15,927 nucleotides of DNA, taken from contig JAYQLI010000019.1 of assembly GCA_038143065.1 (NCBI GenBank), positions 1-15,927 on the forward strand, written 5' to 3'. This document shows, piece by piece, positions 77 to 15,829 of the stretch (position 1 is the stretch's first letter; every line of letters starts with the position of its first letter). The notes under the pieces were generated by a model. It made no database searches, was not told the origin of the DNA, and saw nothing but the letters and a program-made list of their open reading frames with translations. Position numbers and translations under genes: made by a program. Origin of the DNA: Rhodospirillales bacterium (GTDB taxonomy: Bacteria > Pseudomonadota > Alphaproteobacteria > Bin95).

Positions 77-1053
77 CTATTTACAAGCGGACGGACCTTC
101 CGCGCACTCGTACACGCGAACATAATCGACTTCCATCTGTCTCGGAAAAATTTGAGCCATCGGAAGCGCCTGACCAATTGCCGCCCCGGCAAAGTTTGAT
201 TAGATGGAAATACTTGATCGAATGGGGCATTGGGATCATTTGATGCATCGCTCGAGAACCATTGATTCTGGGTCAAACGATAGTATTCGTCCCCATTCAA
301 GAACCATCTAATTTCATCGGGATACCATTCTACCGTATAGGTGTGAAAGTCATAATATCAGATAAATATCAGAACCACCTAGGTATGTATGAGGGTCTCC
401 CCAGTGCGCAGTGCCGTGAATAGTTCTACCGCCAGAACCACCAAGGTTAACCGCCTCATAATGTCAATTTCCCCTCGGCTGGGCCAATCGACATTGTTCC
501 GGCTCGGAAGCATCCAAAAGCAGGCCAGGATCCCTGACCTGTCGGAAGCTTAATGCTTGCCTCAAATTTGCCGTAGGTGAAATCACCTTCCCGTTCGATT
601 GGATGCGACCCGATGTATATGTGCGCCCTTGATCCAACACGCCGTCAGCACGGCGCGCCGTCAAAATAAGGTTTCCATCGCTAAAGGAGACGTTTTGCGG
701 ACTGTTTGTGTAGCACTGCTGTTCGTTGTTTTCTCCGCCATTACACATACTCCGTCCGTAACTATCAGAAGTGCTCCATTTATTTGTGTCGAGCGTGCTT
801 CCTGAAAACTCATCGAACCAAACTAATTCCCAGCCATCGGCATCTGGAGCGCCACCTGAGCCGGTATCGCTTCCGCTGCCACCATCGCCGTTATTGCTGC
901 CATCGCCGGCGTTGGCCCGACTGAACCACTATTAGCAGCAGCTGTTTCTGAGTCACTGTCTATTAACATAGCCATTGCAGCACCAAGAAAAATTGGCCGA
1001 GCAAGTTGCCAAAAAGGGATGCTGCGGGGTTTCCTCCCTAGGTGGTCGAGCAT
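77..1053 (-). CDS. GH16 endo-1,3-beta-glucanase (laminarinase-type), exported, with a Gly/Ser/Asp linker; frameshifted in this assembly
   Basis: Joined across frames: hydrophobic N-terminus (ATG 1053, GAGG RBS), GDGSNNGDGGSGSDTGSGG linker, WELVWFDEF, NNEQQCYT, GNLILTARR, YTSGRIQS, GSWPAF(W)M, GEIDIM(E) catalytic motif at about 455-474, DFHTYTVEW, APFDQ, MEVDYVRVY, and stop TAG at 77-79. Confidence 0.9.
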
Positions 1054-1073
1054 GGGTGCACCTCGATCAGCGC

Positions 1074-1484
1074 CTAAGCGGCCGTGGTGCTGAATTCTGA
1101 TGGTGATTTTTCACTTGCGAATAAGTAAAAAGTTAAACCAACAAAATCACTTTCACGATGCCCAAATCGATCTAGTCGATGGCCCGCCTCGAGTTGAAGA
1201 CCAAAAGGCAAATAGGCTTTTAGCGTCCGCGCACCGCCCATCCGCCAACCCCCCCAGCGCCCTTTAGCAACATAAGCATGGCGAAGAAAAGTAAGCTTTG
1301 GCAAATAAGGTACTGCAGGTAATGGAACGGCAACATCTACTTTACGAAAATCGCTTTCTACAGTAAGCCCTTGCAACTCCAAACCACCCCAGCTAGGAAC
1401 ATTGGCCGGCGACATGTGATCTTGCGCGCTGGCAGCGCCCTCCATCGCACACAAAAGCACAAAACCGCGAATACAACTTTTCAA
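1074..1484 (-). CDS. Hypothetical exported protein, 136 aa
   Basis: The ORF fills the gap between the symporter and GH16 on the same strand. It has a TTG start with an AAGGA RBS and a signal-peptide-like N-terminus (MKSCIRGFVLLCAMEGAASA-Q). No family recognised. Confidence 0.6.
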   Translation of the reverse strand: MKSCIRGFVLLCAMEGAASAQDHMSPANVPSWGGLELQGLTVESDFRKVDVAVPLPAVPYLPKLTFLRHAYVAKGRWGGWRMGGARTLKAYLPFGLQLEAGHRLDRFGHRESDFVGLTFYLFASEKSPSEFSTTAA

Positions 1485-1511
1485 TTTAATCCAGTCCTTA
1501 CTTCGCTAGCA

Positions 1512-3094
1512 CTACCAAAAATAGATATAGATGGCGATTAGAATGATCGTCAGGCCCACAGCTGATTGGTTAAAGCCGCGCGTCGTTACGAAATTCATAC
1601 CTGACAAATCAATGGCCTCGCTGTCGTTGGCTTTATCCATATTGGAGGCTAGATAGCCGACCACCAGACAACTCAGGAAGACGATCCATATGCGAATGAC
1701 AAAAGCCAAATCGGGGTTAGGAATTTCAAAGCAATATTGGCCAATACGGAAACAATCAGCATGGCGAATGCGCCTCGCGCATTACAGCCCTTCCAGAACA
1801 TACCAAGCAAAAACACCGAGACAATACCCGGGGCAATAAAACCAGTATATTCTTGAATAGCTTGGAAAGCGCTTTCCATTCCACCCAGGAATGGGCGCGC
1901 CAAAATAACCGCGATGATAATGGCAGCTGCCGAAGTGAGACGGCCAATGCTCACATAATGGGCCTCCGTGCGGCCCGGTGCGATCAGGTCGCGGTAAATA
2001 TCCATGGTGAAAATCGTTGAAATAGAATTCATCATTGAAGCCAGAGAGGACACAATCGCAGCAATCAGTGCGGCAAACACTAGACCGCGCAAGCCTTCAG
2101 GCACCAGACCCATCAAAATGCCGTAGGTCGAGTCGGGCTTGCCGCCAAGCGCGCCATGTCAATTGCCCTTCACGCGCCAGATAAAGCGCGGCTATGCCAG
2201 GAATAACAACGATAATCAGGATCAGCAATTTCAGCGCCGCAAAGGCCAAACCCTTTTGCGCTTCGGCCAAACTTTCAGCGCCTAGCGCGCGCTGGATGAT
2301 ATATTGGTTGAAACCCCAATAGGAGAAATGCAGCACCCATAGTCCGCCCAATAGCGTCCAAATGCCAGGCAGATTATTATAACTCGGATTTTCGGCGCTA
2401 GTATCATCTCAAAATGGCCTGGAATTTCGCTCATCAGCGTACCAAGACCTGCAAAAATTCCAGCGCCGTTGCCAACAAGCGACAGCACAATGCCGGTAAT
2501 AGCAAAGCCACCGGCGACAAGCACTACCACCTGAATAATATCCGTCAGTGCGACAGCTTTAAGCCCGCCATAAAGTGAATAAATCACTGCAAAAGCGGCC
2601 AGACCCATCATCGCGGCAATCACGTTCCAGCCGGTCAGGGCGGTCAAAGCGAGGCCGCCAAGCCATAACACGGCGGTCAGATTGACGGCGGTGTAAAGCA
2701 CCACCCAAAAAATCAGCCATCATGGATTTAATTGTATGGGCCAAATCGCAATTCTAGGAATTGCGGCATGGTGTAAATCTTCTTTTCAAGGAAAATATCG
2801 GCAGAAAATATTTGGCGACAATAATCAGCACAATCGCCGCTTGCCACTCATAAGCGGCAATGGCGAGACCAACCACAAACCCCTGACCTGATTGGCCAAT
2901 AATTTGTTCAGCTGATATGTTTGCCGCAATCAGCGACGCGCCAATGGCCCACCAAGGTAACGATTTGCCTGCCAGAGAAATAATCTTCACTCGACATATC
3001 CGCCGGTGACTTGCGGGTCGATACATAAAGGGCAACGCTCAGTAAAACCACCGCATAAATCCCGATAACAGGTAAGATCAATTGATGTAAGCAC
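1512..3094 (-). CDS. Sodium:solute symporter (SSS), vSGLT-like Na+/glucose or galactose cotransporter; frameshifted
   Basis: GTG start at 3094 behind GGAGG. Fragments read LAGKSLPWWAIGASLIAANISAEQ, AIAAYEW, YSLYGGLKAVALTDIIQVVVL, YWGFNQYIIQRALGA, AAIVSSLASMMNSISTIFTMDIY and AFQAIQEYTGF, ending in IYIYFW-stop. These match the vSGLT subfamily pattern. Confidence 0.93.
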
Positions 3095-3130
3095 AGCCTA
3101 CCTCCCCCTTCGCAAAAGAGACCTCAGAGA

Positions 3131-3150
3131 TTGTGACAGCGTTGTCATAA
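3131..3150. promoter_or_regulatory. LacI-family-type operator palindrome upstream of the symporter
   Basis: TTGTGACAGCGTTGTCATAA is a near-perfect 20-bp palindrome with a central CG (core TGACAGCGTTGTCA, 3134-3147). It lies just downstream of a predicted -10 element. Confidence 0.75.
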
Positions 3151-3155
3151 CCCAG

Positions 3156-3184
3156 AGAATGGCGCAAATAAAATTTTATTTCAA
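3156..3184 (-). promoter_or_regulatory. Putative sigma70 promoter for symporter-hypothetical-GH16
   Basis: On the minus strand: TTGAAA (3184-3179), 17 nt, CATTCT (3161-3156), in the 105-bp gap between the GH3 stop and the symporter start. Confidence 0.5.
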
Positions 3185-3199
3185 GCGAGCTTGTTGACC

Positions 3200-5086
3200 C
3201 TAATAGCTAAGGCCAAAACCCCGCTCAAAACGTGTTGGGGCGGGCACTTGCAGTTGCCGCCGTTGGCTGGCCACGCAAATGGCAAACGACCTGTGAAATT
3301 ATAACCCGCTTTGCCATTTTTCTTGCTAAAAGAACATCGGCAATGCCGCCGCCCTCACTTCCAGGAAGCCAAAGCAACGACAAAAGCATCAGCCAGATTA
3401 GCAATCAGTCGGTCTAAAACCGGACGGACGGCCGGTCAAGAAAACGCCGACTGTCTTAACCCCTTTTTCTTCATATCTTCAAAAGATTTGTCATCACTAG
3501 CACTCAACTTATCAAAGTCAGTACTTTCCTTATCGCCGTCGAACTCGGCATATGGAGTTTCACCCAAAACATAAACCGCAGTGTCGCCTGGCTTTCAGGG
3601 ATCGCTCTCATTCGCTACTAGAACGTTATTTTCTTTCAATGCTTCACGCAAGCCATCACCTGATGATGTATGGCCTGAATATTTTCTTGCTGCTTACATC
3701 TCGCCCTTGCCAATCCATGGTCCATCCGCCAGACTGCATCTTAACATTATCAACCCAGGCCCGGATAAGAGACGCGAGAACTTTCAATTGGTAATGCATT
3801 ATCGTTTTTCAAAAGGGTCAAGGATTTGCGAACGGCGGCCCGAGCGACATTCCGATGGGAGCAAATCCAATCAACCATCGCGTCCGGCAATACAGCGTTC
3901 ACTGGGCGATTTCCCCTTCATAAGGCCAGAACGAAATTTAACGCGTCAAAATGCGCCGCACGGCATCGTCAACGCGGGCACGGGAGATGTCGCCGCGTTT
4001 GACCTGTGAAACCGTGTATTTCGATAAATTTCCGCCAATCATATGGAACCATAATCATATCGACGCCGGCATTAATTGCGTCTGCACAACTTGAAGGAGA
4101 GCAGCCAGGCACCTGTTCGTGACCGTTCCAATCACCCACCACAAACCCATCAAATCCCATCCGACCTTTTAGGATGTCCGTGAGCAGATATTTATGATGA
4201 TGCATTTTATGACCGTTCCAGCTACTGAAGCTCGCCATTACGGTTTGAACGCCAACCCAATGCATCGATGTAGGGACGACCATGAAGCTCCGACAATTTC
4301 TTTTCACTGATAGGCACGTCGCCCTGGTCAATTTTATTATTACGCCCAGTTCCATAGACTGGACCCCCATCCCCAACAAAGTGTTTCGCCGTTGCAATAA
4401 CTTTCTCTTCAGATAGAAAATTATCCAGCGCAGGGTGTCCTTGCAGACCAAGGAAAATCTCTTTGGACAAACTTGACTATCTCTGGATCGGATGAATAAC
4501 CCTCATATGTTCGCCCCCATCGGACATCTTGAACATTGCCAAGTGTCGGTGCAAAAACCCAATCAATGCCGGTAACGGCAACCTCGCGTGCTGTTGCTAT
4601 GCCAATGTTGCGCATTAAAGCCGGATCGTTGGCCGCACCCAGACCAATATTGTGCGGAAAGATTGTTGCTCCCGCCAGATTATTGTGACCGTGAACAGCG
4701 TCAGTTCCCCAAATAATCGGAATACCTGATTTTGATTTAGCGGTTTCCTTGAAATACAAATCGGCCATTGCAACCAATCGACAGGCCGAGATCCAGGCTC
4801 TTCAGTTGGCCAAGATCCACCGCCATTTAACAGCCCACCAACATAATTCCGCTTGGCATCCTTGGGAGAAATTGCCTTAATCTCTGCCATGATCAACTGG
4901 CCAACTTTTCTCGCAGTTTCATCAGCCAAAACAGCAGAAATTCTTATTTTCCTAATTCTGATCAACCGGATGGTTGTTTTCACCTTAGGCCACAATTGTT
5001 GCTTCAGCAATCGCCGGTTGCAATAGAGTTAAAAAATAAGGGCAAAACATCCAGACAAAAAGTTCGATAGCAAGAATAATGGTCAT
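3200..5086 (-). CDS. GH3 beta-glucosidase / exo-beta-glucanase (ExoI/ExoP-like), probably periplasmic; frameshifted
   Basis: ATG 5086 with a GAGGA RBS and a signal-like N-terminus ending AIA-E. Motifs: KVGQLIMAE, LNGGGS, WGTDAVHGHNN, FPHNIGLGA, RWGRTYEGYS, AKHFVGDGG, GFVVGDWNG (nucleophile Asp). The C-domain, missed by the ORF track, reads QSGGWTMDWQG, GETPYAEFDGD, LTGRP, LPGSEGGGIADVL, FTGRLPFAWP and GFGLSY-stop (TAG 3200-3202). Confidence 0.92.
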
Positions 5087-5148
5087 TGTGATATCCTCAG
5101 AAACCCCTCTCCGGACACTGGCTGAGGAGGGTCAGTAATCATAAAGTG

Positions 5149-8100
5149 CTAAAAATGTTTCGGACGCGAATACCAAAGGTCCGCTCGATTGAAGAACCTC
5201 GTATTATCACGCTGTGTAAGAATGATAGCTTGCGGCTGGATTTCATTTGTGACATTGTTGAGGATCGCCTCAACTTTGATAACGATCGTCTCCAAACAGG
5301 CGTCCAACCAGCTCCGATATCAAAAGTCCAATAGTCACCCACAACTTCATCCAAGCGCTCTTCACTTAGTCGCCAGGATAAATCCGACCATTAAATACTG
5401 TCATAAACATTTCAGAGCGGTAACCCGGCCGACACAATCAATCGAGCGAACCGTAATCACCCAAATTTTCTGAGCGGCTGATATTCGCACGAAGCTGGAT
5501 TTCGGGCGCGCGCGGAAGTTCATGGCCATCAATTGACACGTATTTTGCTGTAATAAGGGACTGGGTCGTGCCATTATTAGCCTTCACAAGCTGAACATCT
5601 TCGCGCTCTTCATATCGACTGTCGTTGATATCCTGGTCAGTGCTCAGTTCGGAAGTCATAAACACTGCAGACAGATCAAGGTTTAATCCATTTGCAAAAT
5701 CGAGCCCCAAGTCTACGTTCAGGCCCATAATTTCGGCTTCGGCAGCATTGAAATTGTAGGTAACAACCTGGTTCAATGATGGGTTATCCGCTGTATCTCC
5801 GCCAAAATTTCCTTCGTCACCTACCCCAGTAATAATTTGACCTAAGGTCGTAACCGTTTAGAGCGAAAATTGATCCAACTGACGTCAACGTTGAAACAAC
5901 CATATCTTGATAGTCATAATAGAAACCAGCGAGATTGAGCTTTACTCCCGTTGGTTCCGTACTCAAACTCCTGCTTCGAGCCAACTTCATAGTAGAGGAC
6001 GCTTTCGCTCTCGTATTCGGGGCTTGAGTAGTGGCATCAAAGGCAACAGGCGCCGTTCCAGCACGACCCGCCGAGATTGGCGCCTCTGTTCCTGCCAAGT
6101 TATCATTAAATCCACCCGATTTGTGACCCGTCGCAATTGTCGCATAGGTCAGCCAATCTGCATGAACATCGTATTCAAACCGCAAACGCCAATCATCAAA
6201 ATCATTTTCGATGCGACCATTTTGGATGGCGATGTGACCATATGGGGCTGCATAAGAATAAATGTCATAATCCAGGCCAGCGATTGCGCCGTCTACGCAA
6301 CCAATATCCATCATATCGCCATTCTCATTTTCCCAGACTGCTGTGTCGGCGTCTACGCAACGGCCCAAGTGTTGGATTGGCGGCTAATGCAGCCGCACCG
6401 ACATAGGCATTGCTATTCGGGTCCCACCATTACCTTCCAGTTGTTCGCCTGCAGCAAGAATTTCATCGATATTATCGTCTTCCCCCCAACGGGCTACGCC
6501 ATCCAGCATCCAAGCAACGCGCTCGTTGCCGGTTAAAGTCCATCCCCGTCAGTGTCAGGGTTGTAGATTGTTCGGTTGAACTTGGCGAACTCAAAGCCCG
6601 GGGTTCCAAACCGCGCGGTTCCGATATCGCCCCACATGGAAGCCATATGATTAAATCCATTCGGCCGGTTTGTGCCTGCGGCATTACCCGCAATGCTGTC
6701 GGAACAATATTGGGCATTTCCGCAATTACCAAGGGCAATGAGAAAACACCGTTCACGCCATAGCGTTCAATTTCCTCGTCGGTAGCACGATACCCCGCCG
6801 TCAAACGCATGTCGTCTGCCAAGTCATATGTGCCGTCAAAATAAATTGCGGAGCTTTCAGAATTGTGTTCTTGTATTAAACTCTTGCCCCAACCAGTTTC
6901 CGTTTACACGATCGCTGGTTGCTCCCAGGAAAAGAACGCTGCTCCTCTTCAAATAGGAATATTCCCGCTGTGTAATTTAGGGGAAGCCCAAAAGATGAAG
7001 CCTCATTGCTTACAAACCGCAGTTCGGCCACGTCAGAATCAGATTCGTTAACGATGTTGAAAAAGGAATGATTATCATAAATCTCAGAGGTAGGGCGTGT
7101 GCGCGTGCTTTGATTATACTGCGTGCTATCAGGCCGCGTTACCAGGAGCCAAATTGTCTAAAACCCCTGTGTAAAATGGCGTCATCGGTGTTGCAGCGCG
7201 ATAATCATAAACCATTTCGCGGCGGCTGATCAAAAGCTCCAAGTCACCATAATCTATTCGCATAATCAATCTCTACTTTTGTTCCCTCATGGTCGAGTAT
7301 CGAGCACTGGCTCGTCGGCCCATCGCAAAACGACTTCACGGGGATTATCGATTGAGTCTGGGTTTACGCCATTTCCAAGAGGATTTGCAAAGTTTGAACC
7401 AGTCCAACCCGTCCCGTCTTCTTCAATTTTGTCATGCGTAAAAGTAATCGCTAAGTCGCTTGTTGGCTCGATAAGATAGGACAGCCGATATGAGAAATCG
7501 TCCTGCCCGTTCGCCCCATCTTTGGGGTCTGGTCCGTCGGTTGTAACGCCAAGATCAGCCCGAGAAGGACCCTTATTAATATAAAGAGGATCATTTTCTG
7601 ATCGGTAAAAGGCAAAACGCGCGGCAGACTTATCATTAATTCCCCAAGTTAAGAACACCCTCAGATGTAAATTCATTATTTTTACCAAACCGACTTCAAA
7701 CATTCCGTCAGTTGTACCAATGCCCGGCTTGAAGGCAATAACGTCAACTTGACCCCGCCATCGACTGTCTTCCACGAAGCGTTCCCTGTGGTCCGAAGTT
7801 CACCTCGACCCGGGCAATGTCAAAAAATGCCGAGCCAAAACCTGCTGGACGAGGGACATATACTCCATCGACGTGGGTCGCAGCAGATGGGTTGCCAAAT
7901 TCTGTATTATTTGAGTTACCAACTCCGCGGATCCAAACTTCAATGTTGCCGCCATTATTAGCGATATTCAATCCAGGCAAAGCTCCGTCCAAATCGGACA
8001 TTTTCTTGAGGTTTAATTCTTTTAGCGCTTCTGTATCGATGACGCCTGCTGTACCAGCAAGATCTTGCAAGTCCTGTGATCGGCGTTCAACTGTGACGAT

Positions 8101-8220
8101 GATTTCATCAACGCCGCCCTCTTCTTGAGCTACAGCTCCGGAGACTGGCACTAAAATTGCTGCCAATGCTGATGTTACAATAAGATTGCCCTGCAATCGT
8201 CCTTTAAAACTCTTGCGCAT
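5149..8220 (-). CDS. TonB-dependent receptor (about 1020 aa), probably a beta-gluco-oligosaccharide importer; frameshifted
   Basis: ATG 8220 behind AGGAGG, signal peptide ending AVA-Q, TonB box DEIIVT, plug motifs WIRGVG, VDGVYVPRP and FFDIARVEVNFGPQGTLRG. Barrel motifs include TYATIATGHKSGGFN and NLAGFYYDYQD. The C-terminus RTFGIRVR..F ends in a terminal Phe plus TAG at 5149 if one base is restored (5139 as read). Substrate is inferred from gene context. Confidence 0.92.
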
Positions 8221-8309
8221 GATAGAATTTCCCTCCTGATTGCCGCCAAACATTTGCGGACGGCGTTTCCTACTCCCAAAATAGGAATTAACTCAAATAA
8301 ATAAGTTTT

Positions 8310-8323
8310 GTCCACCGCTGTCA
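8310..8323. promoter_or_regulatory. LacI-type operator copy immediately downstream of the receptor -10 element
   Basis: The minus strand reads TGACAGCGGTGGAC, sharing the 8-bp TGACAGCG half with the 3134-3147 palindrome. Confidence 0.6.
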
Positions 8324-8352
8324 ATGATAAAAGTCTAACGCTGTCATTTCAA
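8324..8352 (-). promoter_or_regulatory. Putative sigma70 promoter of the TonB-dependent receptor, with an operator copy in the spacer
   Basis: TTGAAA (8352-8347), 17 nt, TATCAT (8329-8324). The spacer contains TGACAGCGTTAGAC (8346-8333). Confidence 0.7.
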
Positions 8353-8530
8353 AAAGGAAAGAAGTTTGTCATCAGCCTAGAAAATGATTGCGAGGAAAAT
8401 AATGCCTCGAGAGAGATGACAGTTTTTGTGAATAAAACCTGCAAATGATCTTAATTAAAATCTTTATTTAACTCCGAAATTGGAGCGCGGTTGTTGATCG
8501 AAAATATGATCAAAACTAGGCATGCTGGAT

Positions 8531-9735
8531 CTATCGTTCGCCCAGTGATTCAAAAAAAGTGTTTTGGTGACGGGCTTGAGAAGGTAATTTAATATTGTAT
8601 TTTTGCCTGTCTTCACTTCAACCATTGTTGTCATACCCGGTAAAATTTGGAGATTCTTGTTCTTGCTGACGGAGAACTCTCGACCCTTTGTTCTAACCTG
8701 AAGTTTATAAAATGGATCCTGTCCCTTTGACGCCTCATCCTGCAATGTATCAGCACTGATGTACACGACCGAACCTTCTAAATTGCCGTAAATCGTAAAG
8801 TCAAACGCGTCAAGTTTTACGGTCGCGTCTTGGTTTAAATGAACAAATCCAATATCAGCGGGAGACAGCTTTGCCTCAATAACAAAATCTTCTTCAATTG
8901 GGACAATTTCCATCACATCTTCGCCCGGGCGTATCACTCCACCCTCGGTCGTTACACGAATATTCTTAACAACGCCCCTCAGAGGAGCATTTCAATGAGT
9001 TTTGACCCAGTTGCCTTTCTTTTTGCACAAGGGCCTGTCGAACGCTCTCAAGCTCTTCTTCCGTCTCATTAAATTCAGCCTGAATATCTTTGAAATATTT
9101 GTTCCGCTTATTTGTAATTTCAGCATTTAACTCAGCCTCTTGTCGCCTGAGCCTTAGTATTTCAGTCCTGCTAACATCGCCAAATTCTAAAGAGGCTCAT
9201 TCATTGAAATTTCTTCTTTTACCAATGTCAATATCTTTTCTAGAGCCGCCAACTCTTCTGATTGCGAGGCTTTTCGTTTTTGGAATAATGCGAGTTGGCT
9301 TTTCACAAATTTTGGATAAGCATTAACTTCTTTAGGAAAAACGGGCTCACTTTGGCCATTTCAGCCTCAAGGCGTGCCATATTCGCCATCAGTCCTGCAG
9401 CTCTTGGCTTTGGCATCCTGATAGTTCGCCAAGGCCTCAGTCTGGTCAAAGCGCGCGATGACCTGTCCTTTGTTTACTTCATCACCAGCACTGACTGGCA
9501 AAGACAGAAGGACGCCGCCATCTTTTGACTGAATAATTTGAACCTTTGAGCTAGGCATAATAACACCCGGCGCACGAACCACTTGATCAATTTCAAAGGC
9601 ATATGCCCAGACTAGGAAGCTCGAAAGTGCAAGCACGGTAAGCCGCAGAACCCATCTTGCTCCTTTGAGCTCGATGTCCAGGCTTTTCGGGTCAATCACT
9701 TGATCTTGGCGCAAGGATGATACGACTTGCTTCAT
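8531..9735 (-). CDS. Type I secretion membrane fusion protein (HlyD family); frameshifted
   Basis: N-terminal TM segment followed by IDQVVRAPG..PSSKVQIIQSKDGG and GDEVNKGQVIARFD. The C-terminal part has EIVP, DIGFV, VKLDAFDFTIYG, ISADT, ILPGMT..VEVKTG and YLLKP. Correcting a T-run gives the typical ending ESLGER-stop at 8531 (8464 as read). Its start overlaps the ABC gene stop (ATGA). Confidence 0.93.
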
Positions 9736-11903
9736 GAAGAACTGCTCCGTTCATTGGCCTGTCGCTGTAATTCTTCAAACACCTGGTCTTTCGGCCCATC
9801 AATAACAAGACGTCCAGCCTCCATAATTATGACACGGTTTATGTGTCGCATTGAGTTAGTTTTTATGCGTCGCCATGATAATCACAGCATCCTTATCAGC
9901 AGCCCCGAACAGGCCATCCATCACCAACGTCTCGAGTTGCCCATCCATTGAAGCAGTAGGCTCATCGAGTAAAAGCAATTGTGGCTTTGCCAAAATTAAA
10001 CGCGTAAGCCCTACCAACTGCCGTTGGCCGCCCGATAAACCCTTGCCACCTTCAGAAATCATAATATCGAGCCCCTTAGGATGCGCTTTTATCGCGCGAT
10101 CCAAGCCGGTTTTAGCCGCTGCATCGAAAATTTGGCTGTCGCTGACTACTGGCAAACCAAGAACAAGATTTTCTCGAAGGGTTCCATTGAACAAACGCAC
10201 CTCTTGGGGAAGATAACCAATTTGCTCGCGCAAAAATTCGACGGCAACGTGTTGCATATCGATACCGTCTAGAAATGCTTTACCAGTCTGTGGGCGATAT
10301 AAGCCAGCCAACAACTTCAATAGTGTCGATTTGCCAGAGCCGACCGAACCCAGTATGGCAATTCTATCGCCTGGCCTGACATCGAGGTCCTTAACCTCAA
10401 TTGGGGGCGAATTTACTTCATATGAAAACGTGATGTCAGATAATTCTATCCGGCCATGGCACTTCTCAGGGACAATATTCCTCTCCACATTATGCTCACT
10501 TGGCATAGCCATAATGCCATCGAGAACCTTCAGGGCAATCTGCGCGTGTTTCCATTGTACAATCAAATTAGGGATTTGCGCGAGAGGTGTGAGCGCTCGA
10601 CCTGAGATAATCGAGCATGCGATCAAGCCACCCATTGTCAGGTTACCTTGAGAGATTGCATAAGCGCCGGTTGCAATAATTCCTACATAGCTCAATTGCT
10701 GTACTGATTGCACAGAGCTTGTTGAAATTGTGGTTAACAATTTCGTTTTAATTTCGGTATTGCTTATCCTCAACGTCAGCTTGCGCCAGCGGTCTTTTAT
10801 TTTCCATTCCGCCGCAACAGCTTTCACTGACTCAATACCATCAATTGCTTCGATTAAAAGCCCATTCTTTTCATTAGAAGCTTCCATATTCTCAGCCGTA
10901 TATTGCTCTACCCTCCCCAGCATTGAAATACCGACAAGCAATCCGAAGAGCATAAGAAAAAGCGGAACTAAAGCGACCGGTCCGGCCAAGAGATATATGA
11001 CGAAGATAAAAAAGAGAGCAAAAGGAGCATCCGCTAAAATAAACAGAGTGGTCGAGGTCATAAAGTTTCGCACAGATTCAAAATGTCTAATTTGCGCAGC
11101 AAATGTGCCGACCGTGCGCGGGCGCGACTCGGCTCTAATATCCAGTGCCTTGGCAAAAAAAACATCCGACAATTCAACATCGATAGCTTTGCTGGCGCGA
11201 TCCACCATTTGGGCACGGACTAGCTTCATAGCAAACTCAAAGATTATCGCCAAAAGAACGCCCAGTGTTAGAACCCATAAGGTACTAAATCCATTGGTTG
11301 GGACAACCCGGTCATAGACCTGCATTGTATAAAGAGCTGAAGTGAGACCGAAAACACTCACCATAAAGGTGCCGAGAACTGCCTCAATGAAGACTGCTTT
11401 ACGTTTTCTTATTGCTTGAAAAAACCAATCTTTGGCGCTGTAGCCTTGCTCTTCTTCGTTGAGGGCATCAGATTGCCCCACAACAAGCTTTACTGTCTGC
11501 CCCTCTGCAATTCGGTTTGGCGGGAGATATTCTGACACGCCATGGGCACTTTCGACCAAGAACCCTTGATTTTGAATCCACGGATAATCTTCGCTTCAAA
11601 GCCTTGCGCTGTTTTCAACACCCAAAGCAAAGGGAGGTCAGGTTTTCCTACTTTGGTGATATCAATGATAAATGCTTCGCCGTCTAAAAAGCGAGATTTC
11701 CAGAGTTCAATAGCTTGGTTAGCTGGATCAAGATGAGCAAGCTCCACACCATCAGCATTTGTTTCCGGAAAAGCAAAGCGGTGAACCGGAACTGCCACCC
11801 TTGCCAAAGCGGATATTCGGACCAACAAAGGCGCAAGCGCTCCCTCCACACCATCGTCGGACTGAGTTTCATCCTCACTAATGTGTTGATTATTACTCAC
11901 CAT
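9732..11903 (-). CDS. Type I secretion ABC transporter (permease/ATPase, LssB/LapB-like); frameshifted near both ends
   Basis: MQVYDRVVP, TM domain, Walker A GSVGSGKST, Q-loop YLPQE, signature LSGGQRQ, Walker B LLLLDEPT and H-loop ATH. It continues after a shift as RVIIMEAGRLVIDGPKDQV to TGA at 9732. The N-terminal extension (11490-11903 ORF) sits where a C39-like domain usually is. Confidence 0.95.
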
Positions 11904-13216
11904 CTGATCCCACTGTGCCGCTGTTCAACTCACCAACAAAAATTTTTAATTTAAACGATGTTAGGGTCTGTATAGCTTGATGGTCTGTGAGAGCATACCG
12001 AGCCTGCACCAGCTCTCTTTGAGCGTTCAGAACATCGAGCCATGATTTCCGGCCAACCGTATACTGCCGCAAATAAGAACCAACAACCTGCGAGGTGGAG
12101 TCTACCAAAAGCTGTGTCGGAGACAATTGCAATCTGGCCGCTGAGTATTCTCTCCAAGTGACTTTCACCTGTCGGCGCGTTTCACGCTCTAAAGCACGAA
12201 GGGTCTCGTTTAACGCACTTTTCTTCGCTTGACTTACGTGTATAGATGAGCGCGTCGACAAGCCCGCCCCTGGTTGGAAGTCCAAACCTAAGAAAACCTG
12301 TTCATCATCTTGATCGATCGCCAAATCGCCGTAGCGCTTCTCGTAACCGAGGGATATTTGCGGATATAAAGCAGACTTAGCAACCTTTTCCTCCGACTTC
12401 AGACCAGCAATCTCTGACCTCATTTTTCGAATTGGCGGAGAAAAAATGGAGCGCCGCTTTTTCTGCTTCACCAAGAGAGAATTGGCTCATGTCCGCCGCT
12501 TGAGGTGCAGTAATATTATAAATGGGTCCGCCAATGAGCTGCTCTAGGTCGGCTTTAGCAACATCCAAAGCATTGGAGTTTTGAAGCAACTGAGATCTGG
12601 AAAAAGCCAGTCTTGCATTCGCTAATCGCAGGTCAACCTGAGGGCTAGTTGCCGCACCCACGCGCCGTTCGATAATTTTATAAAGGCGCTCATGCTCTTC
12701 AACATTACTGAGGGAAATAGCAACTTTTAACTTTGCACGATGCATATCGATAAAGCTGCGAGCGGCATCCAAGAGCACGGCCTGCTCTGTCTCAATTAGC
12801 GCCAATTTCGCTGCATCACGTTTGGCTTTGGCAACTCCAATGGCCCCCGTTATTTTGCCTCCAGTCCATATTGGCTGAGAAACTGATAAGACCTCCTGAT
12901 CAAGTGCCTCTTGCTCCCCATCTTTTCGAAATCAGCGAACGCTAAATCCTGCATTTGGGAACAGAGCCCAGCGGGCAGCGCTTAGGTCACCCTCTGCAGC
13001 CTGAAATTCTTGCTTTTTTGCCAGGATCAAGGGATGAGACTGGACCGAGAGGGCGAGCGTCTGATTCAATGTTAGAACCTGCGGAATTACTGCCTCTTTG
13101 GCATAGCTGGGCCAAGCCAACGCGACCAAAAAAATAGACGCTATGGCCTTTCTTACGGCATCATGCCTTGCCTTTCCCGAAAAATGAGCGGCGCTTATGG
13201 ACCTAATATCTCGCAT
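11893..13216 (-). CDS. Type I secretion outer membrane protein (TolC family, LapE-like); frameshifted
   Basis: Signal peptide ending SYA-K, SHPLI, ARWALFP, QPIWTGGK, LYPQISL and RQYTVGRKSWLDVLNAQREL. Its stop overlaps the ABC gene start. Confidence 0.92.
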
Positions 13217-13264
13217 TCAGTCGAGGTTATCCCTCAAAACAGGAAATATAACAATTACAAAGTA

Positions 13265-13299
13265 AATCAGGCGATGGAACAAAATTCCACCGCCTGATT
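13265..13299 (-). terminator. Intrinsic terminator or stem-loop after the secreted repeat-protein gene
   Basis: The minus strand reads AATCAGGCGGTGGAA-TTTTG-TTCCATCGCCTGATT (15-bp stem with one G-U pair), followed by TACTTT, about 60 nt after the stop codon. Confidence 0.75.
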
Positions 13300-13359
13300 A
13301 TTTCAAGGTCTAAATTCAAAAACGCTTACATATGCCTTTGAAGCGACCTACTAGACTAC

Positions 13360-15829
13360 TTAGGCAATGATGATTGCCGAAGCAAAGGTTACGTCATCAA
13401 TGAAGTACGTTTGCCCTGCCGCTGCATCATTAAGGTCACCAAAAACGGATGCTTTCACTATGTCTTGCTCCGCTAGGCTTTCCCCGCCTGTCAGACTTGA
13501 GCTAGGAGAAATCAAACGTTACATCATTCCATCCAGCATCGACGCTTTGTTCTAGCTGAACAGATCCAACTGAATTATCAGAGGGAGCGCCAAATCGCTC
13601 GAGCTTCAAAGTAATGTCCCCAGCTTGCTCAGCATAGACACGCATCGTTACTTCGCCCAGAGTTGACATCAAGTCATTCTCCGTATCGCCGTAATCCGCA
13701 ATGGTCACACCGGCCCAATCTTCAGCACCCGGCGGGCTTACCAATTTCGAGCATTTCTCGAACACCGGTATCGCCATCGGTCTGTGTTCCAAAGGTAGCT
13801 GTTGCATTGCCAAATACCGTCACGTCAGCCCCGGCATTGAACGAGTAAGTTTGCGTGGTAGCGTCGGAGCCAACCAAGTCCACATTTGGGAAAGCCAAAT
13901 CATCGATAAAGATGGTTTGACCGGCACCTGCATCAGTAAGGTCAACAAAAACAACGGCTTTCACAACATCTGCAGCAACCATGTCCTCACCGCCACCGAG
14001 TGACAGTCCTGTCAGAGCAAAGCTGAGGTCGTTCCAACCGGTTGTTACCGCTTGTGTTATCTCGACCGCTCCAACATTGGAACCATCTGTCGGTGCACCA
14101 TAGCGCTCAAGCTTCAGGGTCACGTCGCCGTCTTGCTCTGAATAGACACGCATTGTAATTGCATCGTCCAAGCTTGTCACAAGATCATCCTCTGTCACCA
14201 TAGTCGACGACTGTCACACCGGCCCAAGTTTCGACACCGTCACCAGTCGGCTTCTCAATGCGCAGCATTTCACGATCAGTTCCACCATCATCCTGGTTGC
14301 CGCGGCGCACAGTGGCACCGCCAAATGCAATCGCATCGGTGTTAAAATCGAGAACAAGCTCTGCAGCTTCCGGCTGGTCGGCAGTGTACGAACCCAGAGC
14401 CTCAGTTCCATTGTGGCCCGCACGAAGGGCTACGTTGTCAATATTGACTTCACCCGTATCACCGGCAAACTCAAAAATGCTCGCAGTTCAGGAGTGGTTG
14501 AAGGCGCTATCACCGCCATCTGCAGATGCTTTCAAGTGCACCACGATGTTCTGAGTTTCGCCGTTTACCGTGATTACTTTTTTGTGGTTAGCAAAGTCAT
14601 CACCGTTTTCGCCAATACCCGCGTTCAGGGTACGGCCAGCGCGACCAGATACATCAAAAGTTAGCGCGTAGTAATCTGCACCAGCTGTCCATATCGACGA
14701 CTTGCTGCATATTGACAGACCATGGTTCAGCTGTGTTGGCTGTTGGCGTATTTACTGCATTCTGACCGTTTGCGGGGTTGTAACCGTTGTTTGATCCTGT
14801 CCAAGTATCGGTGCCGTCAAAGGTGCCATCGTTAATCAGATTAGGCGCGGTGTAAGAACCTAACGCCTCAGTACCGGTGTGTCCCGCTTTCAGGGTTACA
14901 TTATCGATAGTCACCTCACCTGTGTCGCCAGCAAATTCAAAAAATGCTCGCAGCTCTGGGTGGTTGAAAGCGCTATCGCCGCCATCTGCAGATGCTTTCA
15001 AGTGCACCACGATGTTCTGAGTTTCGCCGTTTACCGTGATTACTTTTTGTGGTTAGCAAAGTCATCACCGTTTTCGCCAATACCCGCGTTCGGGGTACGG
15101 CCAGCGCGACCAGATACATCAAAAGTTAGCGTGTAGTCTGCACCCGCTTCCATATCGACGACTTGCTGCATATTGACAGACCATGGTTCAGCTGTGTTGG
15201 CTGTTTCGATTGTAACGGTGTTCGCCCCATTTGTTGGGCTATAGCCACTGGCAGCGCCAGTCCAAGCGTCGGTAGTGTCAAAAGTACCATCGGTAATCAG
15301 ATTCGGATTAACGATAGCCCGGAGTTTCAGGTCATCGCTATCGTCGTCGTCATCGTCGTCAACCGCAGCCGCGACTGCGGCTGCGCCCAATGTAGCAAGG
15401 GTAACCTTTGCAATAGTACTCAATCCGCCGACTGCAGAAGAGCTGCCACCTGATGCAGCTGCACCAAAAGTATACGAACTTTCCGTCTCCGATGAAGCCT
15501 CAACAAAGCCATAACTAGCAACGTCATCCGCGAAATGGGTGCTGTCGTTTTCACGACCCTCCTACCTCTTGATCAGGCCCTTGAACGCACTATTTGAATG
15601 CCGTCAAGGTCCTCATTATCGCGTTCCTCTTTTTTATCCCTCTTTTTGGAAAGCTCAATTTTTTCTTCAGCGACAGGTGTCTGGGTTGCTTCATTAGCAA
15701 CGACCCCATTAGTGTCGGTTTGAACGTTTAGGCCGTCCAAAAAGAGGCCGCAAGCTTTTCAGCATTTTCCGCTTTTTGATTTTTACCAGGCTTGTTTCCT
15801 GCTAACTCAGTTGTTTTACCTTCAGACAT
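13360..15829 (-). CDS. Probable T1SS-secreted multi-module carbohydrate-binding protein (about 820 aa: 2x CBM4-like plus 2x unassigned beta-sandwich); frameshifted
   Basis: ATG 15829 behind GAGGG and no Sec signal. Reads: charged N-region, GGLSTIAKVTLATLGAAAVAAAV-DDDDDDDSDD, two about 154-aa repeats (NLIxDGTFD..W..AEPWSVNMQQ..YxLTFD..IDNVxL), two about 170-aa repeats (KP..WAGVT..MRVY..TLKLE..GWND.xF..FIDD.xF), ending SAIIIA-stop (TAA 13360). It lies immediately upstream of the T1SS genes. Confidence 0.8.
13363..14375 (-). repeat. Intragenic tandem duplication B: two diverged modules of about 510 bp
   Basis: Shared peptides REML.I.KP, WAGVT, DYGDT, TMRVY.EQ.GD.TLKLER.GAP.D, GWND, SL.GGE, D.VKA.VF.DL.DA.AGQT.FIDD. 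The anchor atagacacgcat occurs at 13634 and 14142. Confidence 0.88.
14380..15306 (-). repeat. Intragenic tandem duplication A: two CBM4-like modules (14846-15306 and 14380-14845)
   Basis: Direct repeat with an offset of 461-466 bp. 14688-14744 is identical to 15149-15205, and 14513-14666 is near-identical to 14979-15131. Confidence 0.95.
15331..15360 (-). repeat. GAC/GAT codon run encoding poly-Asp (DDDDDDDSDD)
   Basis: Read directly; it follows the hydrophobic segment of the secreted protein. Confidence 0.85.

Follow-up and report, generated by a model that had tools for sequence, protein, structure and literature searches.

The window analysed here is the whole of contig JAYQLI010000019.1 (assembly GCA_038143065.1; 15,927 nucleotides), in which a type I secretion system (T1SS) and a protein built of repeated modules lie upstream of a beta-glucan uptake set. 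We propose, with a confidence slightly on the favourable side of even, that the exporter displays this carbohydrate-binding module (CBM) protein at the cell surface, where it would be held by its leader and would concentrate laminarin for a glycoside hydrolase of family 16 (GH16) and a TonB-dependent receptor, a GH3 enzyme and a symporter then finishing the uptake. The linkage of exporter and beta-glucan genes is conserved in two other species, two of the modules (B) are homologous to a laminarin-binding CBM, and both the leader and the C-terminus of the protein resemble those of adhesins of the same exporter family.

Gene order, integrity and conservation of the locus

The minus strand carries every gene, in the order repeat protein, TolC, ATP-binding cassette (ABC) transporter, HlyD, TonB-dependent receptor, GH3, sodium:sugar symporter and GH16. 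The features are the following:

13360..15829, minus strand: predicted T1SS substrate of ~820 amino acids, frameshifted, with leader, modules A1, A2, B1 and B2, and an IIIA end; its intact relatives are P0001, P0004 and P0163
15330..15829, minus strand: acidic low-complexity leader, with a hydrophobic segment (~15361-15429) and then an Asp run; putative tether
14381..15306, minus strand: putative CBM4-like modules A1 (14847-15306) and A2 (14381-14845), from the repeat and Pfam CBM_4_9
13378..14352, minus strand: modules B1 (~13884-14352) and B2 (~13378-13838), family of CBM X584 (PDB 8QX6), from profile and fold match
11893..13216, minus strand: TolC-family outer-membrane channel, frameshifted (Pfam OEP; TIGR01844 in pieces)
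9732..11903, minus strand: T1SS ABC transporter, probably LssB/LapB-type (TIGR03375)
8531..9735, minus strand: HlyD-family adaptor (Pfam HlyD_3; the intact cluster member P0161 passes TIGR01843)
8324..8352, minus strand: weak sigma-70-like promoter match (10/12) in the ~310-nt AT-rich gap preceding the receptor
5150..8220, minus strand: TonB-dependent receptor of beta-glucan-locus type, frameshifted (Plug, weak barrel; neighbours of its orthologues)
3184..5100, minus strand: GH3 beta-glucosidase, frameshifted (Pfam Glyco_hydro_3)
1512..3100, minus strand: sodium:solute (sugar) symporter, frameshifted (Pfam SSF; 75-85% DNA identity to the best genomes of family f122)
80..1484, minus strand: single gene with a small barrel-like N-terminal domain, a hydrophobic segment and linker, and GH16 (one open reading frame in relatives)

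Of the 81 minus-strand stop-to-stop pieces of the window, 52 were scanned with Pfam, which detected OEP, ABC_membrane with ABC_tran, HlyD_3, Plug, GH3, SSF, GH16 (weakly, in pieces) and CBM_4_9 (in one piece). This confirms the order given in an earlier note on this DNA, which placed a T1SS and a multi-repeat protein upstream of, and co-oriented with, the receptor, GH3, symporter and GH16; the 52 pieces contained no match to a SusD family, in agreement with its statement that no SusD-like gene lies next to the receptor.

Almost all genes of the window are broken by frame disruptions, and open reading frames (ORFs) of at least 250 residues cover 11% of the contig against 65% of the main contig of its bin. 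Intact relatives are known for the substrate and for HlyD. Short-read contigs of independent runs show indels in relation to the window at 12 listed places, including 9860, 11577, 12441 and 13504, and further at 13728, 14192 and 14491, and the frames of the window break at the named places; one of these contigs spans window 9407-14591 with 225 differences and 15 gaps. Since these indels coincide with the frame breaks, the frameshifts are read as sequencing artefacts and pseudogenes were rejected. Furthermore, window 5004-10000 is matched collinearly by a short-read contig of 13,933 nt (run X13) that crosses the HlyD-receptor junction, so this junction is no chimera and a chimeric read was rejected as well. 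In one RNA-library run, the substrate, exporter and GH3 are matched by short contigs, which does not show transcription. In relation to runs X2, X7, X10 and X13, identity drops at window 8500-9400 from 93-96% (ABC, TolC and CBM gene) to ~80-85% within hlyD and the receptor, which suggests a recombination inside hlyD relative to a commoner strain. At window 15315, record 15 of run X2 shows a strain with a matching A module and a leader too diverged to align at 85%.

The synteny check proposed in the earlier note was run, and the exporter with a CBM-module protein was found in beta-glucan loci of genomes G1051 and G1042 and of two metagenomic variants. G1051 shows the full order substrate-TolC-ABC-HlyD-receptor-GH3-symporter-GH16, with 43-71% amino acid identity to the window. 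In G1042, the exporter is flanked by a different receptor with SapC, cupin, halogenase and GH16 genes, and by a symporter-GH16 pair; its substrate has 571 residues, with a homologous leader, two modules of a third type and an FIA end. Module content differs by species but remains CBM-like: A, A, B, B in the window, B and the third type in G1051, and two of the third type in G1042. Of the metagenomic variants, the first (run X13) shows collinearity that extends from the start of GH3 via the receptor (~83% identical) to the ABC gene, and the second, on a more diverged short-read contig, connects receptor pieces to HlyD. Both HlyD matches more than 75% identical in the 57-genome family f122 lie in beta-glucan loci. 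According to the 13 symporter-positive genomes examined, of 19, the exporter-glucan link is genus-level and not family-wide (two of 13 related loci), and the species of the window, G1051 and G1042 may descend from one insertion.

Modules, leader and C-terminus of the substrate protein

Module B matches no Pfam family and has 161 relatives among cluster representatives. A profile of 78 B-family sequences, P0004 included, aligned with PDB 8QX6 over residues 4-164, the whole module, with an E value of 7e-21, and a B profile built without self-like rows gave E values between 4e-22 and 2e-6 for the pieces of the window. The B2 model has a pLDDT mostly above 85 and its top fold match is also 8QX6 (Z 14.1, rmsd 2.8, 144 residues aligned). 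B2 of P0004 retains the W, K, E and D residues conserved in the family. The title of PDB 8QX6 is 'Novel laminarin-binding CBM X584', and from this title and the shared 4BQ2 neighbour we take it to be the structure of the CBM reported in a preprint on Christiangramia forsetii, which gives no PDB code. The module family of that surface glycan-binding protein (Cf-SGBP) is presumably CBM102 in CAZy. The preprint reports laminarin binding by this type of surface-protein module from gel shift, isothermal titration calorimetry and a laminaritriose complex, and notes the same type in some Proteobacteria (10.1101/2023.09.07.556657). Among 55 B-relative proteins scanned, many show a type IX secretion system tail, some show PKD domains and three contain a GH16 domain.

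Modules A1 and A2 share 84% DNA identity. The A1 piece narrowly passes Pfam CBM_4_9 (29.1 bits, cut-off 25.9), module A weakly matches the laminarinase 16A module 1GUI (E 0.064), and a triple-A protein 47-49% identical to the window A modules scores CBM_4_9 at E 1.4e-10; P0004 shows no CBM_4_9 match at E 1e-5. P0001, folded without an alignment, reached a pLDDT of 46.6. The modules of the earlier note were CBM4: of the four, only A1 and A2 may be CBM4-like, B1 and B2 being members of the PDB 8QX6 family. The check on frameshifts and homologues of the 13360-15829 protein that it proposed was thus run, with artefacts and two modules homologous to a laminarin-binding CBM as the outcome.

The leader has ~165 residues. 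Its alignment with the G1042 substrate leader scores 91, the maximum of 2000 shuffles being 70, and it is the top hit of a curated profile of five adhesin leaders (E 4.4e-5 with bias correction switched off); an uncurated profile, for which the segments had been picked automatically, missed it. A hydrophobic segment stands at the same place in the window leader, in G1042 and in several giant adhesins. No lipoprotein signal was seen at the start of the substrate, and no Ig-like extender, cadherin or C-terminal RTX beta-roll families were found on P0004 or the window pieces. At the other end, a [FILV][FILV]A C-terminus is common to the window substrate, the G1042 substrate and large ORFs in six of the 10 exporter loci listed. 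In comparison, it occurs in 8 of 1149 background ORFs and in one of 147 other module homologues.

The third module type is beta-sandwich-like and shows no Pfam or PDB match. It recurs with B modules in proteins with T1SS and RTX features (L096:13251-14963, L093:4653-5834, P0002, P0003 and P0048), and from its sequence is a candidate for an uncharacterised CBM. The alphaproteobacterium G229 (L009-L010, C24) contains a beta-glucan locus with GH81, GH1, LacI and a GH16 that is followed by RTX repeats; several B-module proteins flank its GH81, GH16, GH1 and sugar ABC transporter genes, and no receptor was seen there.

Cf-SGBP, with four laminarin-binding CBMxx modules, is like the window substrate a non-catalytic tandem of the same module family, and is encoded in a laminarin locus with TonB-dependent receptor, GH16 and GH3 partners. 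However, it is a lipoprotein with Ig spacers beside SusC/SusD, whereas the window substrate is alphaproteobacterial, has an adhesin leader and precedes its own T1SS. The same A and B modules were also found in the MOLA455 family (26 of 201 genomes), which we take to be the SAR92 group; 18 of its loci were fetched (L072-L089), most beside GH3 or a receptor. Their multi-CBM proteins have 1200-2100 residues and signal peptides, many are lipoprotein-like and often carry GH5 and CBM6, and Sec export would be expected for them instead of a T1SS. No paper treating T1SS together with SAR92 was found in the literature searched.

Exporter family, uptake genes and host genome

The window ABC protein scores 651 bits with TIGR03375 (cut-off 693.1) on a piece that lacks ~120 N-terminal residues, in relation to 337 for HlyB and 305 for PrtD; LssB is thus its closest T1SS subfamily, by more than 300 bits, and an intact orthologue (76% identity) scores 718.4, above the cut-off of 693.1. 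HlyD of P0161 reaches 330.9 with TIGR01843 (cut-off 208.65), and the HlyD adaptor and TolC channel are encoded together with the ABC transporter (HlyD_3, OEP, and TIGR01844 in pieces). The LssB/LapB ATPase subfamily is linked to retained adhesins in a LapA study (10.1101/198937). In LapA/LapBCE adhesin systems (TIGR03375), a TolC-ABC-HlyD exporter, of the LssB subfamily there and probably also in the window, and an adjacent substrate with a long N-terminal leader are found as in the window; however, the window cargo consists of CBM modules only, no retention module, LapG site, RTX roll or Ig-cadherin stalk was found in it, and its locus is one of sugar uptake.

Collection scans with the ABC protein returned 50 orthologous exporter loci (54-76% identity), none of which matches the window CBM modules, receptor, GH3, symporter or GH16; 36 of the 40 with an HlyD end had at least 800 nt downstream. 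These scans missed G1042 and G1051 and may leave out near relatives, so the lack of glucan genes speaks for distant exporters only. Large substrates, where visible in these loci, are cadherin, Ig or RTX adhesins, and the closest loci carry giant ones. The giant cadherin/Ig adhesins (L011, L041-L044, L046 and L090) share an acidic leader and a hydrophobic segment; those that are complete also have an FIA-like C-terminus, and none has a known retention domain. Close orthologues of the exporter cassette are present in Limnohabitans and in a gammaproteobacterium, presumably of SAR92 type. How an adhesin exporter and A modules could have met is shown by G971, where a giant adhesin and a signal-peptide protein carrying three A modules (47-49% identical to those of the window) flank a 68% orthologue of the MOLA455 exporter.

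Orthologues of the receptor neighbour GH3, GH16 or GH9 genes. The N-terminal receptor piece P0159 scores 27.4 with TIGR04056 (cut-off 368.25), and the SusC/SusD pair and lipoprotein anchor of a Bacteroidota polysaccharide utilization locus were not found at the window. A lack of SusD is expected outside Bacteroidota according to PMC8319329, and SusD-less proteobacterial laminarin loci likewise have a receptor, GH3, GH16 and a sugar transporter; in relation to these, the window has an exporter and a CBM-only substrate inserted. The search for sigma-70-like promoters gave three sites against 1.1 expected, a weak excess.

The separate 'hypothetical' and GH16 genes of the earlier note proved to be one ORF, of 469-532 residues, in five loci of four related genomes. 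The GH16 catalytic motif EIDIME is present across a frameshift, and the N-terminal 125 residues weakly resemble small outer-membrane barrels (look-alikes at 0.90-0.92). A signal peptide, a ~125-residue barrel-like domain without a Pfam family, a hydrophobic segment and GH16 follow each other in window 80-1484 as well as in L096:5163-6581, L098, L101, L102 and L108. The barrel-like domain and hydrophobic segment are possibly an unusual outer-membrane anchor for a laminarinase, and we infer that the GH16 is surface-anchored.

The window contig (C19) is one of 52 in bin G000, which is contaminated, with many error-rich small contigs, and holds three 16S types 83-88% alike (contigs C35, C39 and C49). 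Another small contig, C18, carries a second GH3 (51-53% identical pieces). The main organism of the bin is an unlikely host, given these 16S types, a main contig on which the receptor, GH3, symporter and GH16 have no homologues, and no receptor at E 1e-40 in any of its 36 kin; composition fails to separate the window contig from this organism. When 401 genomes of the class were searched at the DNA level, the symporter was confined to family f122 (two genomes besides that of the window). This family contains 57 genomes of 1.1-2.1 Mb, of which 19 have the symporter with up to 85% DNA identity and four an HlyD match at E 1e-70, two of these with 78-81% identity in genus g502. MOLA455 was also considered as the host family and is the weaker candidate in view of the identities in f122, of 83% for the symporter and 78-81% for HlyD. 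The contig is probably mis-binned and fits a small-genome marine alphaproteobacterial family; a near-identical substrate was found in an NCBI alphaproteobacterial metagenome-assembled genome, and the sequencing runs holding locus sequences are marine and estuarine.

Proposed function and alternative explanations

In the proposed mechanism, the substrate would be exported by the T1SS, C-terminus first, and retained at the surface by its N-terminal leader, and its predicted glucan-binding modules would bind laminarin. The surface GH16 would cleave the polymer, the oligosaccharides would be imported by the TonB-dependent receptor and hydrolysed in the periplasm by GH3, and the glucose would be taken up by the symporter. 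The substrate gene is likely a converted adhesin gene, in which the leader and export signal would have been retained, the cadherin/Ig stalk replaced by CBM modules, and these modules swapped between species. The conserved linkage and the homology to 8QX6 support the earlier suggestion that an adhesin-export system was paired with glucan-binding modules.

Several results weigh against surface display coupled to uptake. The exporter is missing from 11 of the 13 related loci, eight of them long enough to judge and three on too-short contigs. All four loci of genus g499 combine GH3 and the symporter with a receptor of the same type, and the 6.8-9.7 kb upstream of them are free of the exporter; from these four loci, the exporter is accessory and uptake does not need it, and a possible promoter separates it from the receptor in the window. 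The leader pieces have no Pfam or NCBIfam match and no TAAG, PAAG or AAAG (LapG-type dialanine site), and neither a LapA retention module nor the RTX GGxGxD nonapeptide was found in the substrate by Pfam, NCBIfam and motif search, so that a tether is proposed by analogy. As assembled, the G1051 substrate is leaderless, and its YFAV end falls outside the C-terminal motif. As to the modules, A is weakly assigned as CBM4-like from its sequence and was not folded with confidence (pLDDT below 60 in a second model), single-sequence searches with a lone B or the whole protein gave no 8QX6 match, and the B2 fold match to 8QX6 lies within 1 Z of unrelated beta-sandwiches.

The substrate could instead be a short adhesin by which the cell attaches to algal surfaces or to particles rich in glucan, aiding uptake by proximity only, with no handover to the receptor. 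We consider this less likely, even if the substrate shares exporter, leader and C-terminus with the cadherin/Ig adhesins of exporter loci of 64-76% identity and CBM-tipped T1SS adhesins are known (10.1101/2025.09.30.679566): the substrates are short, with 571 to ~820 residues in relation to 1574 to >4789 for the adhesins, they have no stalk domains, and laminarin is soluble (10.1101/2023.09.07.556657). A substrate fully released or carried on vesicles as a free glucan-binder, its leader being a chaperone-like or disordered export aid, would fit the failure to find a known retention domain or cleavage site and the G1051 copy that is leaderless as assembled. However, the position of the hydrophobic segment is conserved between the window substrate, that of G1042 and several giant adhesins, and a released non-catalytic protein would presumably give a small-genome cell little return, which makes release improbable.

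Equally improbable is that the exporter cassette is a passenger, inserted once in a variable region by the glucan genes and co-inherited without shared function. The cassette is mobile, as its orthologues in a gammaproteobacterium and Limnohabitans indicate, its distribution is patchy (two of 20 genomes of the genus) and a single insertion may account for all three species; however, it stayed in the locus of G1042 despite the change of receptor and gene order, its cargo there is exclusively CBM-like, and these modules or glucan genes occur in none of the 50 distant exporter loci.

Surface display coupled to uptake can be stated more broadly, as a separate route to glycan capture in small-genome marine alphaproteobacteria: swappable CBM cassettes displayed by a dedicated T1SS, with an undescribed leader-type anchor, would hand laminarin to a SusD-less receptor and a barrel-anchored GH16, as a functional counterpart of the Bacteroidota SusD/SGBP complex made from adhesin parts. 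This formulation is tentative, and we place it well short of an even chance. The parts of the locus are all known, namely laminarin-binding CBM tandems as lipoproteins, CBM-tipped T1SS adhesins and SusD-less receptors; a stalk-less CBM-only T1SS substrate within glucan-uptake loci was not found in the literature searched, which leaves out most subscription papers.

A leader of this kind, acidic and with a hydrophobic segment, would be an anchor type that matches no Pfam or NCBIfam family, and the single modules of the substrate are small, directly expressible and testable. Laminarin is one of the major pools of algal carbon; in Bacteroidota, proteins for its capture at the surface have been described as lipoproteins. 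If the proposed function is true, genomes of 1-2 Mb would devote ~6.5 kb to another way of holding sugar at the surface, which would bear on how SusD-less receptors compete at low concentration, and an adhesin exporter would have been recruited into nutrition through module swapping.

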